Counted from the stretch's first letter, positions 1,776 through 21,288 are shown. The stretch: 50,853 bases of DNA from Candidatus Methylomirabilota bacterium (GCA_035652475.1 DASRDR010000130.1:1-50853), one strand, 5' to 3'. Numbers and translations are program-made. The notes: generated by a model from the sequence alone, not told the origin.

Positions 1776-4139
1776 ATGACCTCTCGCCCGCTCGAGGAGC
1801 TTCTCGCCCCCTTCCCGCCCGAGCGGACGTGGCTCCTCCCGGCGCTCCAGGCCGTGCAGGCCGACCGGCGGTGGCTCTCGCTCGACGACCTGGCCGCGAT
1901 CGGCAGGCACCTCCACGTCCCGGCCAGCGAGGTCTTCGGGGTCGCCACGCACTACCCGGAGCTCAGGCTGACCGCCCCCGGCCGGCACGTGGTCCGCGTG
2001 TGCACCGGGCTCTCGTGCCGCGTGAACGGTGGGCCCGCGCTCCTCCGCGACCTGGCCGGCCGGCTCGGGGTCGCGCCCGGCGGGACCACGGCGGACGGCG
2101 CCGTCACGCTGGAGGAGGCCGACTGCTGCTTCGTCTGCAGCGTCGCGCCCGTGGTGGAGGTCGATCACCGCCACCTCGCCGGACCGAACGCGGACGCGGT
2201 CCTCGCCGCCTGCCGGGACGGCGCGCCGCACGCCGGGCCGCGGCTCCCCGCCGGGATGGCGACGAGCGGCCCGCTCGCCGTGGTCGACCGCGGCGCCGCC
2301 GGCGAGGCCGCGCGCCCGGTCTCCGCCCCCGCAGCGCCCGCGACCTCCGGGACCCCGCATCCGGGGGCGGCGAGCCCCATCGTGCACGCGGCACCGGCCA
2401 GTCCCGGGGCCGCGCCCGGCGAGCCGGAGCGCGCCGGGCGGATCGGCGCCGCCCGCGGTCCGGGCGGCGCGCGCGCCCGTCTCGAGGCGCTGCGCGAGCG
2501 CGCCCGCGGCCGCGTCCCGACCGGCACGCGGCTCCTGGTCGCGACCGGCTCCTGCGGCCTCGCGCGCGGGGCGGCGCGCACCCGCGACGCGCTCCGCGCC
2601 GCGATCGCGCGTGCCGGCCTGGACGTGGTCGTCGACGACGGCGCGTGCAACGGTCTCTGTCACGCCCAGCCGGTCGTCGAGGTCCTGACGCCGGGGGTGC
2701 CGCGGCTCACGCTCGAGCGCGTCACGCCGGCCGCGGCGCGGGCCGTGCTCGATCTCCTCGCCGGCCGTCCCGCGCCCGGGCTGACGGCGACGGCCTGGCC
2801 GGCCGCCCGCCACCCGGTCCTGGGGGGCGAGACCCGGATGCTGGCCGAGCGCTGGGGCGCGATCCGCCCGGCATCCCTGGATGACGCGCTCCTGGCCGGG
2901 AGCTACGCCGCGCTCGCGGCGGCGCTCGATGCCGGCGACCCGGCGGCGGTCGCCGCCACGGTGAAGGCAGCGGGGCTCCTGGGGCGCGGGGGCGCGTACT
3001 TCCCGGCGGCGGTCAAGTGGGAGGGCTGCCGGGCCGCGCACGGGGCGCCCAAGTACCTGGTCGCCAACGGCGAGGAGGGCGAGCCCGGGATCTTCAAGGA
3101 CCGCCACCTGATGGAGGCCGACCCCCACCGGCTGCTGGAAGGCATGCTCCTCGCCGGATACGCCGCGGGGGCGAGCCGCGGGATCCTCTACGTCCACGGC
3201 GAGGCGGGCCTCTCCGCCGAGCGCTGTGCCGCGGCGATCCGCGAGGCCGCGGCCGCCGGGCTCCTGGGGCCGCGCGTCCTCGGGACCGGCTTCGCGTTCG
3301 AGGTGGAGCTCCGGCGCGGGGCGGGCGGCTTCATCCTGGGCGAGGAGACCGCGCTCCTCGAGTCGCTCGAGGGCGCGCGCGCGATGCCGCGCCCGAAGCC
3401 CCCGTTCCCGGTCGAGGCCGGCGTCCACGGCCGGCCGACGGTCATCAACAACGTCGAGACCCTCTCGGCCGTCCCGCTGATCCTGGGCGGCCGCCCCGAG
3501 GCCGCGCGGACCAAGCTCTTCGGCCTGTCGGGACACGTCGTCCGCCCCGGCGTGGTCGAGGTGGCGCCGCCGGTCACGCTCCGGCGACTGGTCGCGACCC
3601 TCGGCGGCGGCGTCGCGACCGGCCGGCCGCTCGGGGCGGTGGTCGTCGGCGGCCCGTCGGGGATCGTCGTGCCGCCGGGGCTCCTGGACCGGCCGCTCGA
3701 GCGACCGGCGCTCTCGCCGGGGACCGGCGGCATCGTGGCGCTCGACGACTCCGTCCGGCTGGCGGAGGTCTTGCGGACCCTCCTCGGGTTCAACGCGCGC
3801 GAGTCCTGCGGCAAGTGCACCCCGTGCCGCGAGGGGACGGTCCGCCTGCTGGAGCTGCTCGACCGCTTGACGGCCGGAGACGGCGACGGCCGCCCGCCCG
3901 CGGGCGGCGCTCCCGGGGCGGCTCATCCGGGGCCGCGCGCCACCGGCGATCCGGCGCCAGCCCCGCGGCCCCGTCCGGGCGGCGATCCGGTCGCCCGGAC
4001 GAGCGGGGACCTGGCGCAGCTCCGGGAGCTCGCGGACGTGGTCCAGCTCGCCTCGCTCTGCGGCCTCGGCCAGGCCGCGCCGCTCGCGCTCAAGTCGGCG
4101 CTCGAGCACTTCCCGGGAGTCCTCGCCCCCACCGCGTGA
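1776..4139 (+). CDS. Fused NuoE-like (2Fe-2S) / thioredoxin-like / NuoF-like (FMN, NAD, 4Fe-4S) diaphorase subunit of NAD-dependent formate dehydrogenase
   Basis: The N-terminus VCTGLSCRVNGG...EEADCCFVCSVAPVV is a NuoE/FdsG-type 2Fe-2S motif. The C-terminal half has GRGGAYFPAAVKWE, YLVANGEEGEPGIFKDRHLME and ESCGKCTPCREG...SLCGLG (NuoF/FdsB). It lies directly upstream of the FDH catalytic subunit. Confidence 0.9.
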   Translation: MTSRPLEELLAPFPPERTWLLPALQAVQADRRWLSLDDLAAIGRHLHVPASEVFGVATHYPELRLTAPGRHVVRVCTGLSCRVNGGPALLRDLAGRLGVAPGGTTADGAVTLEEADCCFVCSVAPVVEVDHRHLAGPNADAVLAACRDGAPHAGPRLPAGMATSGPLAVVDRGAAGEAARPVSAPAAPATSGTPHPGAASPIVHAAPASPGAAPGEPERAGRIGAARGPGGARARLEALRERARGRVPTGTRLLVATGSCGLARGAARTRDALRAAIARAGLDVVVDDGACNGLCHAQPVVEVLTPGVPRLTLERVTPAAARAVLDLLAGRPAPGLTATAWPAARHPVLGGETRMLAERWGAIRPASLDDALLAGSYAALAAALDAGDPAAVAATVKAAGLLGRGGAYFPAAVKWEGCRAAHGAPKYLVANGEEGEPGIFKDRHLMEADPHRLLEGMLLAGYAAGASRGILYVHGEAGLSAERCAAAIREAAAAGLLGPRVLGTGFAFEVELRRGAGGFILGEETALLESLEGARAMPRPKPPFPVEAGVHGRPTVINNVETLSAVPLILGGRPEAARTKLFGLSGHVVRPGVVEVAPPVTLRRLVATLGGGVATGRPLGAVVVGGPSGIVVPPGLLDRPLERPALSPGTGGIVALDDSVRLAEVLRTLLGFNARESCGKCTPCREGTVRLLELLDRLTAGDGDGRPPAGGAPGAAHPGPRATGDPAPAPRPRPGGDPVARTSGDLAQLRELADVVQLASLCGLGQAAPLALKSALEHFPGVLAPTA

Positions 4140-4284: not shown

Positions 4285-7017
4285 GTGCAGCTGACGATCG
4301 ACGGCCACGCGGTCGAGGTCCCGGACGGCGCGTCCGTCCTCGACGCGGTGAACCGCGCCGGCATCGCCCTCCCCCAGCTCTGCAAGGACCCCGACCGCCG
4401 GCCGCTCGGCGCCTGCCGCACGTGCCTCGTGCAGGTCGAGGGCCAGCGCGGGTTCCCGGCCTCCTGCCACCTCCCCGCACGCGCCGGGATGGTCGTCCGC
4501 ACCGACGCCCCCGACGTGGTCCGCGTCCGCCGCGCGGTCCTCGATCTCACGCGCGGGATGCTCACGCCCGGCCACGGGCGCGACGGCTTCGGCCAGCTCG
4601 GCGAGGCATGCCGCCGCCACGGGCTCGACCGCCCGTCCTGGACGCCGCTCCACCGGCACGCGATCGACGAGTCGAAGTCGTTCTTCGTGCTCGACCGCGA
4701 GGCGTGCATCCTCTGCGGCCGCTGCACGACGGCGTGCGGCGACGTCCAGCGGATCGGCGCGATCGCGCTCCTGGGCCGCGGCCATGCCGAGCGCGTCGGC
4801 GTCTTCGCCGACGGCCCGATGGCGAGCTCGATCTGCACCTCCTGCGGCCAGTGCGTGGCCACGTGCCCGACCGGGGCGCTCCGCCCGAAGGAGGCGCCGG
4901 CCCCGGTCGCCCGCCGGGTCGAGACCACCTGCCCGTACTGCGGGGTCGGGTGCGGGATCGTGAGCGCCGTGCGGGCGGACGGCCGGCTGGCCGTGATGGC
5001 CGACGACGTCCCCGCGAACCGCTCGAGCGAGGGCATGCTCTGCGTCAAGGGCCGCTTCGGCACCGGGTTCGTCCACGCGCGGGACCGGGTCGTCCGGCCG
5101 ATGCTCCGCCGGGACGGCCGTCTCACGCCGGTGTCGTGGGACGAGGCGCTGGACGCCGCGGCGGACGGGCTGGCCCGCCACCGCGGCCGGTTCGGCGCGC
5201 TCGCCTCCGCGAAGGCGACCAACGAGGACGGCTACCTCGTCCAGAAGCTCTGCCGGGTGGCGATGGGAACGAACAACGTCGACCACTGCACCCGGCTCTG
5301 CCACTCGCCGTCGGTGGAGGCGATGCTCGTCGCGATGGGCTCGGGGGCGACCTCCAACTCGTACGTCGACTACGAGGAGGCGGGCTGCCTGTTCGTGGTG
5401 GGCTCGGACGCGAGCGCGAACCACCCGGTGATCGCGGTCCGCTTCCGCCGGGCCCACGCCCGCGGCGCCCGCATCGTGGTGGTGAACCCGAAGCGGATCG
5501 AGCTCTGCGACTACGCCCACGCCTGGCTCCGCCAGCGGCCGGGGACCGACGTGGCGCTCTTCAACGCGATGGCCCGCGTCCTCCTGGTCGAGGGGCTCTG
5601 GGACGAGGCGTTCGTCCGGGCGCGCACCGAGGGGTTCGAGGCCTGGCGCGCGGCGGTCGAGCCCTGGAACCCCGAGCGCGCCGAGCGGGTCACCGGCGTG
5701 CCGGCCCGCGACATCGTCCAGGCCGCGCGCTGGTACGGGCGGCCGCCGTTCGGGGGCTCGTGCCTGGTCTGGGGCATGGGCGTGACCCAGCACGTCAACG
5801 GCACCGCGAACGCCCACGCGCTCCTGAACCTGGCCCTGGTCGCCGGCCAGCTCGGCCGCCCGGCGAGCGGGATCTCGCCGCTCCGCGGCCAGAACAACGT
5901 CCAGGGTTGCGGGGACGCCGGCTGCATCCCGACCAACCTGCCCGGGTACCAGGGCTACGACGCCGCCACCCTCGACCGCTACGCGCGCGCCTGGCACGGC
6001 GTCCGCCCGCCGGCCGAGCCCGGCCTGGTCGTCACGGAGATGGTGGAGGGGTGCCTGGATGGCCGCATCCGGGCGATGTACGTCGTCGGCGAGAACCCGC
6101 TCCTCTCCGAGCCGGACCTCAACCACGCGCGGAAGGCGCTCGGCCAGCTCGACTTCCTGGTGGTCCAGGACCTCTTCCTCCACGAGACGGCGGAGCTCGC
6201 CCACGTGTTCCTCCCGGCGGCGGCGTTCGCGGAGAAGGAGGGCACGTTCACCAACTCCGAGCGGCGCGTCCAGCGAGTGCGGCGGGTGCTCGATCCCCCC
6301 GGGGAGGCGCGCCCGGACTGGTGGATCACGGCGGAGCTGGGACGCCGGATCGTCGCGCGGGTCGGCGGGCCGCCCCAGGCGTTCGCGTACGACTCGGCGG
6401 CGGCCGTGTGGGACGAGATGGTCGGCCTCGTGCCGTTCCTGGCCGGGATCTCCCACGCGCGGCTCGACCGCGAGGGCGGGCTCCAGTGGCCCTGCCCCAC
6501 CCCGGACCATCCGGGGACGCGGTTCCTCTACGCCGAGAGCTTCCCGCGCGGGAAGGGCCGCTTCGTCCCGGTGACCCAGGGCGAGCCGGCCGCCGAGCTG
6601 CCCGACTCCGACTACCCGTTCGTCCTCAACACCGGGCGGCTCCTCTATCACTGGCACGGCGGCACCATCACCCGCCGCGTCGACGGCCTGCTGGCGCTCG
6701 AGCCGCGCCTCCGGGTCGCGGTGAACCCCGCCGACGCGCGCCGGCTCGGGCTCGGCGACGGGGCGCCGCTCCGGCTGGTCTCGCGGCGCGGCGAGCTCGA
6801 GGGCGCCGCCCGCCTGACCGAGGACGTCCGGCCGGGGGAGGTGTTCGTGCCGTTCGTCCGGCTCGCCGAGTCGGCGGCCAACTTCCTCACGAACTCGGCG
6901 TGCGACCCGTCCTCGAAGATCCCCGAGTACAAGGTCTGCGCCGTGCGCGTCGAGCCGCTCGGCGCGTCGAGCGCAGCGGGCCCGGCCGCCCCCGCCGGCC
7001 GGGCCGCCGGCGCCTGA
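4285..7017 (+). CDS. fdhA: Formate dehydrogenase catalytic (alpha) subunit, molybdopterin oxidoreductase, Cys-type
   Basis: N-terminal 2Fe-2S and 4Fe-4S ferredoxin motifs (CRTCLVQVEG, CILCGRCTTAC, CTSCGQCVATCP, TTCPYCGVGCG), followed by the MopB domain NVDHCTRLCHSPSVEAM. The codon at the E. coli FdhF Sec position is Cys (TGC 5299-5301). GTG start. Confidence 0.93.
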   Translation: MQLTIDGHAVEVPDGASVLDAVNRAGIALPQLCKDPDRRPLGACRTCLVQVEGQRGFPASCHLPARAGMVVRTDAPDVVRVRRAVLDLTRGMLTPGHGRDGFGQLGEACRRHGLDRPSWTPLHRHAIDESKSFFVLDREACILCGRCTTACGDVQRIGAIALLGRGHAERVGVFADGPMASSICTSCGQCVATCPTGALRPKEAPAPVARRVETTCPYCGVGCGIVSAVRADGRLAVMADDVPANRSSEGMLCVKGRFGTGFVHARDRVVRPMLRRDGRLTPVSWDEALDAAADGLARHRGRFGALASAKATNEDGYLVQKLCRVAMGTNNVDHCTRLCHSPSVEAMLVAMGSGATSNSYVDYEEAGCLFVVGSDASANHPVIAVRFRRAHARGARIVVVNPKRIELCDYAHAWLRQRPGTDVALFNAMARVLLVEGLWDEAFVRARTEGFEAWRAAVEPWNPERAERVTGVPARDIVQAARWYGRPPFGGSCLVWGMGVTQHVNGTANAHALLNLALVAGQLGRPASGISPLRGQNNVQGCGDAGCIPTNLPGYQGYDAATLDRYARAWHGVRPPAEPGLVVTEMVEGCLDGRIRAMYVVGENPLLSEPDLNHARKALGQLDFLVVQDLFLHETAELAHVFLPAAAFAEKEGTFTNSERRVQRVRRVLDPPGEARPDWWITAELGRRIVARVGGPPQAFAYDSAAAVWDEMVGLVPFLAGISHARLDREGGLQWPCPTPDHPGTRFLYAESFPRGKGRFVPVTQGEPAAELPDSDYPFVLNTGRLLYHWHGGTITRRVDGLLALEPRLRVAVNPADARRLGLGDGAPLRLVSRRGELEGAARLTEDVRPGEVFVPFVRLAESAANFLTNSACDPSSKIPEYKVCAVRVEPLGASSAAGPAAPAGRAAGA

Positions 7018-19966: not shown

Positions 19967-20302
19967 GGACCGCGGTGCGCCTCCGGTCCGGCCTGACGAC
20001 CGGCTCCGGGACGCTGGCCGGCGCCTCCCGTGGAGAGCCGGCGAGCCCCGTGGAGAAGGGCGGATGCTCACCCTCGCCAGGAGACCGGGAAACCCGGTCG
20101 AGGCGGCGCAGCGGGACCGCCCGGGGGTGCCGTCAGGCGGCCGGCGAGGTGGGCGGCCGCGGAGCGGCGGGGGCCGGCGCGTCCGGCGCGCGCGCGGGCT
20201 CCGTCCCGGAGCCCGTCGGCGGCACCGCTCAGCCGCGGCCCCGGCGGGAGAGCCACACGAGGAGCGCGGTCACCAGGCCGGCGCCGAGGATCCCCTCCCA
20301 GC

Positions 20303-20962
20303 TCACGCGGACGCGCCCCCGTTCACGGCGCGGAGGACGGCGTCGACGAACTGCGCCTCCGGGAGCGCCCCCTCGAACGAGACGCGGTCGTTGACGACCG
20401 TCTTCGGCACCGCCATCACCATGTAGCGCTGGGCGAGGTCCGGGAACTCCGTCGCCTCGATGCAGTCCCCCCGGATCCACTCCGACGCGACCGCGAGATG
20501 GTGAGCCAGGCGCACGGCCCGGGGGCAGTGGGGTCAGGTGGGGGTCGTGAAGACCTGGATGTGGACGCGCTCCCTGAGGCCGGCCAGCCGCTCCAGGGTC
20601 TCGGCGCCGAGCGAGGGGACACCCGAGGAGGCGGCGACCATCGCGTCGATGAGGTTCGTGAACTCGTAGCCCATCGGGATGCCGAAGAAGCGGATGCCGT
20701 AGTCCCGGGCCCCTTCCACGACGATCGCCGGCATCCGGTCGACGCCGTAGGCGGCCGCGCGGTCGCGGTCGATGTGGAGGTTCAGGAGCTCGACCGTGAC
20801 CTGGTCCGAGCACTCGGCGACTTCCCGGACGAGCCGCTCGGTCTCGAGCGCGTACTCGGAGGCCTCCAGCTGGCTCGTGAACACGACCAGCTTCACGGGC
20901 CCGGCCAGCCGCGCGAGCTCGTCCCGCACCGCCGCCCGGTCCCGCTCGGTCAGGATCGCCAC
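20303..20962 (-). CDS. Protein-disulfide oxidoreductase (PDO / glutaredoxin-like, two thioredoxin folds) with an in-frame TGA at the first Cys of the CPxC site: candidate selenoprotein (UPHC)
   Basis: Track ORFs 20534..21016 and 20303..20515 share one frame and are separated only by TGA 20534-20536. Read-through gives ...RVHIQVFTTPT[U]PHCPRAVRLAHHL...EFPDLAQRYMVMAVPKTVV.DRVSFEGALPE. A GTG start at 20962 follows GGGGAGG. TATAAT (21015-21020, minus strand) overlaps the track ATG. Confidence 0.65.
20503..20520 (-). other. Candidate SECIS-like hairpin (mRNA +14..+31 after the UGA)
   Basis: GGGCCG-UGCGCC-UGGCUC forms 6 bp including 2 G-U pairs, with the loop at +20..+25. This is a similar distance to the E. 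coli fdhF SECIS loop. Drawn by eye, not folded computationally. Confidence 0.2.
20534..20536 (-). other. In-frame UGA, candidate selenocysteine codon
   Basis: It occupies the position of the N-terminal Cys of the CPxC motif. Third-position GC is above 95 % on both sides. Confidence 0.55.
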
Positions 20963-21288
20963 TCGTGCCTCCCCGGGGATCGATCGCGCGGCGCGACAGC
21001 CGCGCTCGCGGCCCATTATACGGCCGGTCCGGGCGCGAGCCCGGGCCGCGCGCCACCCGGCCGGCGGTGGACGCTCTCCTCGCGGTCCCGAGGCGCCGAC
21101 CGAGGATCGCCCGCGCCTCCGGCAGGTCGAACGGGCGGCGGAGCGCTCGCGCCAGCTCCCGGACGAACCCGAGCCCCGCGACGAGATCCCCGAGCGGGGG
21201 AGGGCGGCCGGCAGTCAGCGCGGGGTGCGGGGCCCGGAGCGGGCGGCCGCCCGGGTGCGGCCGGGAGCGGCCGATGCCGGGCGCGCGG

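Follow-up and report, generated by a model that had tools for sequence, protein, structure and literature searches.

Does an in-frame TGA on the minus strand of a Rokubacterial DNA stretch end a gene, or does it encode selenocysteine (Sec) in the middle of one? The stretch comprises 50,853 nt from Candidatus Methylomirabilota bacterium (GCA_035652475.1 DASRDR010000130.1:1-50853), a Rokubacteria/Methylomirabilota sequence of 75% GC, and is referred to as the window. A preliminary description had singled out two of its reading frames, divided by a single TGA, as a candidate UxxC selenoprotein of the protein disulfide oxidoreductase (PDO) type. Comparative analysis bears this proposal out. The two frames very probably form one genuine Sec-encoding gene, whose predicted product is a single PDO / AhpF-N-terminal-like protein with Sec as the attacking residue of the motif U143-P-H-C146. 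The marks of a selenoprotein gene occur here together: the UGA is conserved and the sequence on both sides of it is conserved as well, cysteine homologues exist, and a hairpin downstream fits the model of the bacterial Sec insertion sequence (bSECIS). In what follows, L-numbers denote orthologous or related genomic loci, and P-numbers denote public proteins or clusters.

In translation, the minus-strand frame is open from upstream of position 20962 to the stop at 20305-20303, except for one TGA at 20536-20534. Mechanical calling of open reading frames (ORFs) lists its halves separately, as 20534..21016 and 20303..20515 in the same frame. The preliminary description had reported this arrangement, and the read-through peptide, ...RVHIQVFTTPT*PHCPRAVRLAHHL..., is exactly as quoted there. 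Six codons lie between the TGA and the GTG of the supposed second ORF, and they read P-H-C-P-R-A. The codon for Cys146 is thus upstream of the called ORF 20303-20515 and would therefore be translated by read-through only. The GC content of third codon positions (GC3), earlier noted as high on both sides, is 0.98 over the 50 codons that precede the TGA and 0.96 over the 50 that follow; that of second positions (GC2) is 0.48 and 0.46, respectively. This is the sole same-frame TGA split in the window that has a coding signal on both sides and is not just two abutting genes. The other splits of this kind, scanned for in the window and in Rokubacterial flanks, separate adjacent genes only. TGA is the usual stop in the window, where it ends 26 of the 39 called genes. 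UGA is therefore not reassigned genome-wide, and its decoding at this site must be local.

The family of the product was assigned with protein searches that used the 219-residue sequence with cysteine replacing the in-frame stop. It matches the NCBIfam model TIGR02187.2, "protein disulfide oxidoreductase" (PDO_seleno_TRX), over model positions 2-208/209 with 257 bits (cutoff 185), and its C-terminal unit (residues 134-210) matches Pfam Thioredoxin_3. In sequence alignment with the PDB entries 1J08 and 1A8L (E ~1e-44), residues 1-213 align to residues 1-225. The TGA coincides with the first cysteine of the C-terminal CPYC in these Pyrococcus PDOs, TPT-U-PHC-P against TPT-C-PYC-P, in agreement with the earlier placement of the stop at the nucleophilic cysteine of the family's CPxC. 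The N-terminal unit has indeed lost its CxxC, as had also been noted, with SEYA in place of the CQYC of archaeal PDO. The classical second CxxC is therefore lacking, which leaves membership in TIGR02187 at the level of the hidden Markov model unaffected.

Archaeal and thermophile PDOs (P. furiosus 1A8L, P. horikoshii 1J08, Aquifex 2AYT/2YWM, Aeropyrum 2HLS) have the same full-length architecture of two thioredoxin folds, and the protein described here aligns with them position by position in the C-terminal segments VF.TPT-CPxC-P.AVR.A and MAVPK. They have cysteine at both positions and a second, N-terminal CxxC, whereas this protein has SEYA in its N-terminal unit and a predicted Sec as the C-terminal attacking residue. 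The N-terminal domain of AhpF (1HYU, 1ZYN; E 6e-14) also consists of tandem thioredoxin folds and, as here, carries a single redox motif in the second fold. By analogy, this likeness points to a protein that shuttles electrons between a flavoprotein and a peroxiredoxin. AhpF differs in having a fused FAD/NADH (flavin/nicotinamide) thioredoxin-reductase-like domain, which is absent from this protein. Identity as AhpF itself was rejected: the score of 74 bits with the AhpF model TIGR03140 is far below the cutoff of 503, and the 219-residue protein has no fused flavoprotein domain, that is, no C-terminal FAD/NAD(P)H thioredoxin-reductase-like domain. The best explanation of the sequence is a cytoplasmic thiol/selenol-disulfide oxidoreductase of ~24 kDa that belongs to the PDO / AhpF-N-terminal-domain family.

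The 2004 prokaryotic selenoproteome survey already counted this family among the predicted bacterial UxxC selenoproteins, and papers of 2006, 2022 and 2026 list it as well. Its current NCBIfam name, PDO_seleno_TRX, itself flags selenoprotein members. Family exemplars from Carboxydothermus hydrogenoformans (ABB15282.1) and Symbiobacterium thermophilum, compared by family model and description, belong to the same NCBIfam model and have the same UxxC motif with Sec first; their selenoprotein status is predicted, as it is for the protein here. The hosts of the exemplars are thermophilic Firmicutes/Actinobacteria, whereas the present copies come from soil Rokubacteria/Methylomirabilota and Acidobacteriota. 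A literature search returned no paper linking Rokubacteria to a PDO-type selenoprotein, which we do not take as evidence of novelty. The gene is a new, well-supported member of the family in soil Rokubacteria, with parallel members in Terriglobia, and represents neither a new family nor a new mechanism.

A scan of species-representative genomes yielded 55 loci, which three contig-derived loci bring to 58, and the homologous codon was tabulated for 56. It is TGA in 52 of them, including all of the ~26 Methylomirabilota and 26 of the 27 Acidobacteriota/Terriglobia. Protein identity is 63-90% in Methylomirabilota and 45-54% in Acidobacteriota/Terriglobia. The remaining four loci have a cysteine codon, namely TGC in L049 (Terriglobia) and TGT in L054, L056 and L057, the last two from Asgard archaea. 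Protein searches found full-length cysteine-containing homologues at ~50-63% identity, and P0002 is a 62%-identical cysteine form with the motif CPHC. They also found ~90 clusters of 75-99% identity, all 141-143 residues long and thus cut at the same codon. On contigs, each 142-residue call is followed, after 19 nt, by a separately called Thioredoxin_3 ORF of 70-83 residues. The frame after the TGA stays open in all loci, for 74-92 codons and in one case 116. The 70+ residues downstream of the TGA are better conserved than those upstream, with 58% versus 42% identity between phyla and 82% versus 76% within Rokubacteria. A comparison of orthologues for decay or truncation after the TGA, as proposed in the preliminary description, found neither; Cys/Sec pairs are present, and the downstream protein is conserved. 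One public protein, P0003 (JGI, 219 residues, 63% identical, full length), reads TPT-L-PYCP and has leucine at the Sec/Cys position. A sequencing difference (TGA/TTA) may explain this, or the variant may be real and inactive.

A SECIS-like hairpin follows the UGA (numbered with the U of UGA as 1). Its core stem pairs G17-G18-G19-C20 with G26-C27-C28-U29, and its loop has the pattern N-G-U-N-C across sequences. The stem continues in one of two ways: C15/C16 pairs with G30/G31 or, in the RNAalifold consensus, G11-C13 pairs with G30-C32 across a 3-nt bulge. In the window, the hairpin has 6 bp (stem 4-6 bp), a 5-nt loop CGUGC with G then U at loop positions 2-3, a distance of 17 nt from UGA to loop, and an energy of -9.6 kcal/mol; the stem begins 11-12 nt after the UGA. 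The bSECIS model specifies a loop of 3-9 nt, a stem of 4-16 bp, a G among the first two loop nucleotides (mostly with G or U after it), a UGA-to-loop distance of 16-37 nt, and a minimum free energy of <= -7.5 kcal/mol (PMC13188914), and the window hairpin lies within all of these limits. The energy limit is reached by 45 of the 48 distinct TGA-bearing sequences that were folded. The SECIS elements of E. coli fdhF and fdnG are likewise hairpins in the coding region directly after the UGA, with a small apical loop containing G then U. The spacing of 11-12 nt between UGA and stem is that of the minimal E. coli element, as defined by work on fdhF. In comparison with fdhF, the stem here is much shorter (4-6 bp, or 4+3 bp with the bulge), and there is no sequence similarity. 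No Rfam model detects the hairpin: a search of the window gave no match at gathering thresholds and chance-level matches only around the UGA site.

The hairpin is conserved beyond what the protein sequence alone would seem to call for. The block after the UGA is near-invariant at the nucleotide level in both phyla (TGA CCN CAY TGY CCN CRG GCS GTN CGC CTG GC). Pairing is preserved in 93% of cells across 47 sequences, versus 21-54% in a control in which the 3' arm was slid. In Rokubacteria, codons +4..+9 (CCC CGG GCC GTG CGC CTG) are identical in 25 of 25 genomes, with zero codon entropy, in comparison with 1% invariant columns among 81 other conserved-residue columns for amino acids of 4-6-fold degeneracy. 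In Acidobacteria, which have 55-65% GC, third positions in the bulge or unpaired part and in the loop vary freely. The 3' arm there retains CGC for arginine in 25 of 26 and CTG for leucine in 25 of 27 sequences (entropy 0.24 and 0.38), a value of <= 0.4 being found in none of 70 other columns. This synonymous freezing supports an RNA-level constraint on the predicted hairpin. The motif occurs once in the window. Among the cysteine-type loci, L054, L056 and L057 are without the hairpin block and L049 keeps it. The L049 copy (Terriglobia, position 3029), the only Acidobacterial one with cysteine (TGC), has the hairpin sequence CCTCGGGCCGTGCGCCTGG intact. Because the block is still intact, this copy suggests a recent replacement of Sec by cysteine.

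Several results weigh against decoding as Sec. At 4-6 bp the stem is short, and in two copies from Acidobacteria the energy misses the limit of -7.5 kcal/mol (L031 with -4.4, L050 with -6.5). None of the 6-7 pairs shows a compensatory double change across the 47 sequences, and compensatory change thus lends the hairpin no support. The pair changes are one-sided only: G-U/A-U (13), C-G/U-G (7) and G-C/G-U (1). The structure therefore rests on conservation and is not proven by covariation. Single-sequence folds downstream of the UGA, in DNA of 75% GC, are no better than shuffles (z -0.3 to +1.2), and the case for the hairpin is therefore a comparative one. The GC-rich hairpins drawn in the preliminary description consequently stand in one respect and fail in another: a conserved hairpin that fits the bSECIS model is present, and folding of the single sequence does not single it out. 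No redox partner or flavoprotein gene adjoins the gene in the window, no partner is conserved among loci, and none is adjacent in Acidobacteria. Finally, selA, selB, selD and tRNA-Sec are all missing from the 50.8-kb window and from ~450 kb of sequence around the Rokubacterial orthologues.

Parts of the Sec machinery are found elsewhere in the two phyla. E. coli SelA, SelB and SelD, used as tblastn queries against the window and all orthologous loci, gave matches to selD in L031 and L051 only. In these two Terriglobia loci, selD lies 4-6 kb upstream of the locus's own copy of the PDO-Sec gene. It carries an in-frame TGA at the equivalent of E. coli Cys17 (VKAAG*AAKLS; TGA at L031 5239 and L051 3806), followed by a strong downstream hairpin. 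A Rokubacterial selD was sought by a metagenome scan with a high-GC SelD motif and sorting by tetranucleotide signature, which led to L143, whose SelD has its best named relatives in Candidatus Rokuibacteriota. Gene order in the corresponding loci L182-L184 matches that of the NCBI Rokuibacteriota contig L185. The SelD of these three loci reads LSHGAG*ACKLGPE, with the TGA again at the Cys17 equivalent (L182 9651, L183 9652, L184 9655), and a strong hairpin, GGGCCAG-loop-CUGGCCC, begins 12 nt after the UGA. No link was found between the Rokubacterial selD contigs and the contigs that carry the PDO gene. The selD copies of L182-L184 also carry frameshifts, which are probably long-read assembly errors. 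In the window, ARAGORN detected no tRNA. It made odd calls in L011, L021 and L143, none of which was confirmed: Rfam returned nothing in L011 and L021, and in L143 the call falls within the coding region of selD. A first candidate for a Rokubacterial Sec cluster, L125, was rejected as belonging to Candidatus Limnocylindrales / Limnocylindria (Chloroflexota). As an observation in its own right, L125 (208-4228) and also L076 and L068, high-GC soil contigs of Limnocylindrales, contain a compact selB - selA - tRNA-Sec(TCA) cluster divergent from selD.

A further candidate selenoprotein occurs next to the gene in some Methylomirabilota. In L020-L022, the gene directly after the PDO-Sec gene encodes a signal-peptide-bearing AhpC/TSA protein with an in-frame TGA at its peroxidatic cysteine (AFT[SP]G*T.EF; TGA at L020 5147, L021 6886 and L022 7413, plus strand). 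A hairpin, UCCCGG..CCGGGA, lies ~15 nt downstream of this TGA. The protein is probably a second selenoprotein, and this predicted Sec-peroxiredoxin appears to be exported. Large selenoproteomes have been reported in Methylomirabilota, including one metagenome-assembled genome with 63 predicted selenoprotein genes. Reports also exist of Sec-type group 4 hydrogenases in both Methylomirabilota and Acidobacteriota; most of the genomes concerned have selABCD.

How else might the TGA be explained? The preliminary description had itself named a recent TGC-to-TGA nonsense mutation, which would have left a fresh pseudogene with downstream codons still undecayed. A single base change would suffice for this, and a high downstream GC3 would persist for a while, but the TGA is common to 52 loci in two phyla at 45-90% protein identity. 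The tail is also under stronger purifying selection than the head, and the frame after the TGA is open in all loci. A chimeric assembly of one sequence, which might have produced the same picture, is excluded by the divergence of the orthologues. The shared TGA and the better-conserved tail therefore exclude a recent nonsense mutation, a decaying pseudogene and an assembly error alike, and we give this account next to no credence. It is also highly improbable that the UGA is a true stop between two proteins, a 142-residue N-terminal thioredoxin-fold protein and a separate 70-residue thioredoxin-like protein started at GTG 20515. Gene callers split every database copy in this way, and GTG 20515 does exist in the window. 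However, the P-H-C-P-R-A stretch between TGA and GTG, with the invariant resolving cysteine, is conserved in all loci, and the product started at GTG 20515 would be without strand beta-1 and the whole redox motif. The supposed start is a valine codon in the hairpin loop that is GTT, GTC or GTA, none of them a start, in at least 10 Acidobacteria, and no ribosome-binding site precedes it.

A different kind of alternative accepts recoding and changes the amino acid. The UGA might be read not, or not only, as Sec: a SelB-dependent tRNA of the tRNA(ReC) type could insert cysteine on the same hairpin, or a near-cognate tRNA could insert tryptophan or cysteine by read-through at low selenium. SelC* tRNAs that decode SECIS-associated UGA as cysteine are described in the literature, DNA alone does not distinguish insertion of Sec from that of cysteine, and the cysteine form L049 keeps an intact hairpin. 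Yet a plain TGC would serve for cysteine, as cysteine codons do in four loci, and the lineage keeps a Sec-type selD that would be purposeless without Sec insertion. No tRNA of either kind was found in the sequences examined. On balance, we consider non-Sec recoding quite unlikely, and a Sec-encoding gene remains the reading that we favor.

If the UGA at 20536-20534 is a Sec codon, Sec-tRNA(Sec) would read it after delivery by the elongation factor SelB. The hairpin loop, with its apical G-U, would recruit SelB while the UGA sits in the ribosomal A site, and Sec143 would be inserted. Binding of SelB to the hairpin and insertion of Sec at residue 143 are both inferred; the geometry of UGA and hairpin is that of the minimal E. 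coli SECIS. In the folded protein, U143 would lie exposed in the second thioredoxin fold as its attacking residue, and the U143 selenolate would attack substrate disulfides. A selenenylsulfide would then form with Cys146, which would act as the resolving residue. On the model of AhpF and archaeal PDO, the oxidized protein would probably be re-reduced by a thioredoxin-reductase-like flavoprotein and would hand electrons to peroxiredoxins or other disulfide substrates. Precedents for such an electron route are the transfer from AhpF to AhpC and the archaeal thioredoxin reductase/PDO systems. The redox partners envisaged here are modeled on these systems.

The features of the gene and its surroundings are collected in the table. 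The start codon is shared by the orthologues, whose proteins begin MAILTERD, and most orthologous loci have a GGAGG-like motif at the corresponding position. Of 19 Methylomirabilota loci, 12 have (G)TATAAT 20-60 nt upstream of the start codon within DNA of 64-75% GC. A consensus promoter scan found no -35 partner and no full promoter near TATAAT, and the promoter/terminator scan gave nothing. From its sequence and placement, TATAAT probably gives the selenoprotein gene its own promoter.

Table. Coordinates of the predicted selenoprotein gene and associated features in the window
Feature	Position	Strand	Description
Predicted selenoprotein gene, complete	20303..20962	-	219 codons; GTG start; Sec143; stop TGA 20305-20303; two tandem thioredoxin folds
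In-frame UGA, predicted Sec codon (residue 143)	20534..20536	-	First position of the U-P-H-C redox motif
TGC, Cys146, resolving cysteine of UxxC	20525..20527	-	Invariant cysteine in all loci
SECIS-like hairpin	20505..20526	-	Positions 11-32; apical loop C-G-U-G-C at 20516-20512
Shine-Dalgarno-like GGGGAGG	20968..20974	-	5 nt before GTG start 20962-20960; read from the sequence
TATAAT, probable -10 box	21015..21020	-	~53 nt upstream of the GTG start
Small ORF, 25 codons, VSWEGILGAGLVTALLVWLSRRGRG	20229..20306	-	GTG start overlaps the TGA stop of the gene (GTGA); hydrophobic

The small ORF that overlaps the end of the gene looks, from its sequence, like a translationally coupled single-helix membrane peptide. 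The pattern [VM]SWEQIL...VLLWRRGLG occurs directly after the gene in most Rokubacteria loci, and L017-L019, L023 and L024 have a variant ending in ...WVLPRLGVPT; the small ORF is absent from the Acidobacteria loci. Neighboring genes in the window encode an aminotransferase, an Rce1-like protease, DUF445 and GGACT, and those in Acidobacteria encode MutS2 and a phosphoribosyltransferase. At a distance from the gene, the window also contains the alpha subunit of an NAD-linked formate dehydrogenase (4285-7017, plus strand) with 2Fe-2S, 4Fe-4S and molybdopterin domains. It has Cys339 (TGC 5299-5301, TRLCHSPSV) at the Sec/Cys site, a cysteine that the preliminary description had placed correctly. 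A fused NuoE/NuoF-like subunit (1776-4139) lies upstream of it.

Some wider possibilities follow from this arrangement. One is that a ready-made selenoprotein gene moved between the phyla along with its SECIS, which would account for the near-identity of the UGA-and-hairpin cassette in both. In Rokubacteria, the enzyme and the 25-residue peptide could together make up a redox module anchored in the membrane. A third possibility is that the UGA works as a switch that responds to selenium, yielding either a truncated 142-residue product or the full-length enzyme. That all three hold together, as transfer between phyla, an acquired peptide/membrane module and a selenium switch, seems to us unlikely.

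The finding leaves knowledge of selenoprotein families and of recoding mechanisms unchanged. Its immediate consequence is for annotation. Public databases systematically divide this gene, which is widespread in two abundant soil phyla, into two, and ~90 clusters are affected. The halves are labeled as a 142-residue "alkyl hydroperoxide reductase subunit AhpF" and a Thioredoxin_3 protein of 70-83 residues (clusters P0004-P0120; loci L001, L002 and L061). The JGI label "AhpF" on the 142-residue fragments is a mis-annotation, and the correct product would be a single Sec-containing oxidoreductase. The very compact and highly conserved SECIS, with a stem of 4-6 bp and a 5-nt loop, provides a test case for minimal recognition by SelB in non-model phyla. 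The gene is also a further indication that the thiol-redox chemistry of Rokubacteria and Terriglobia depends on selenium.

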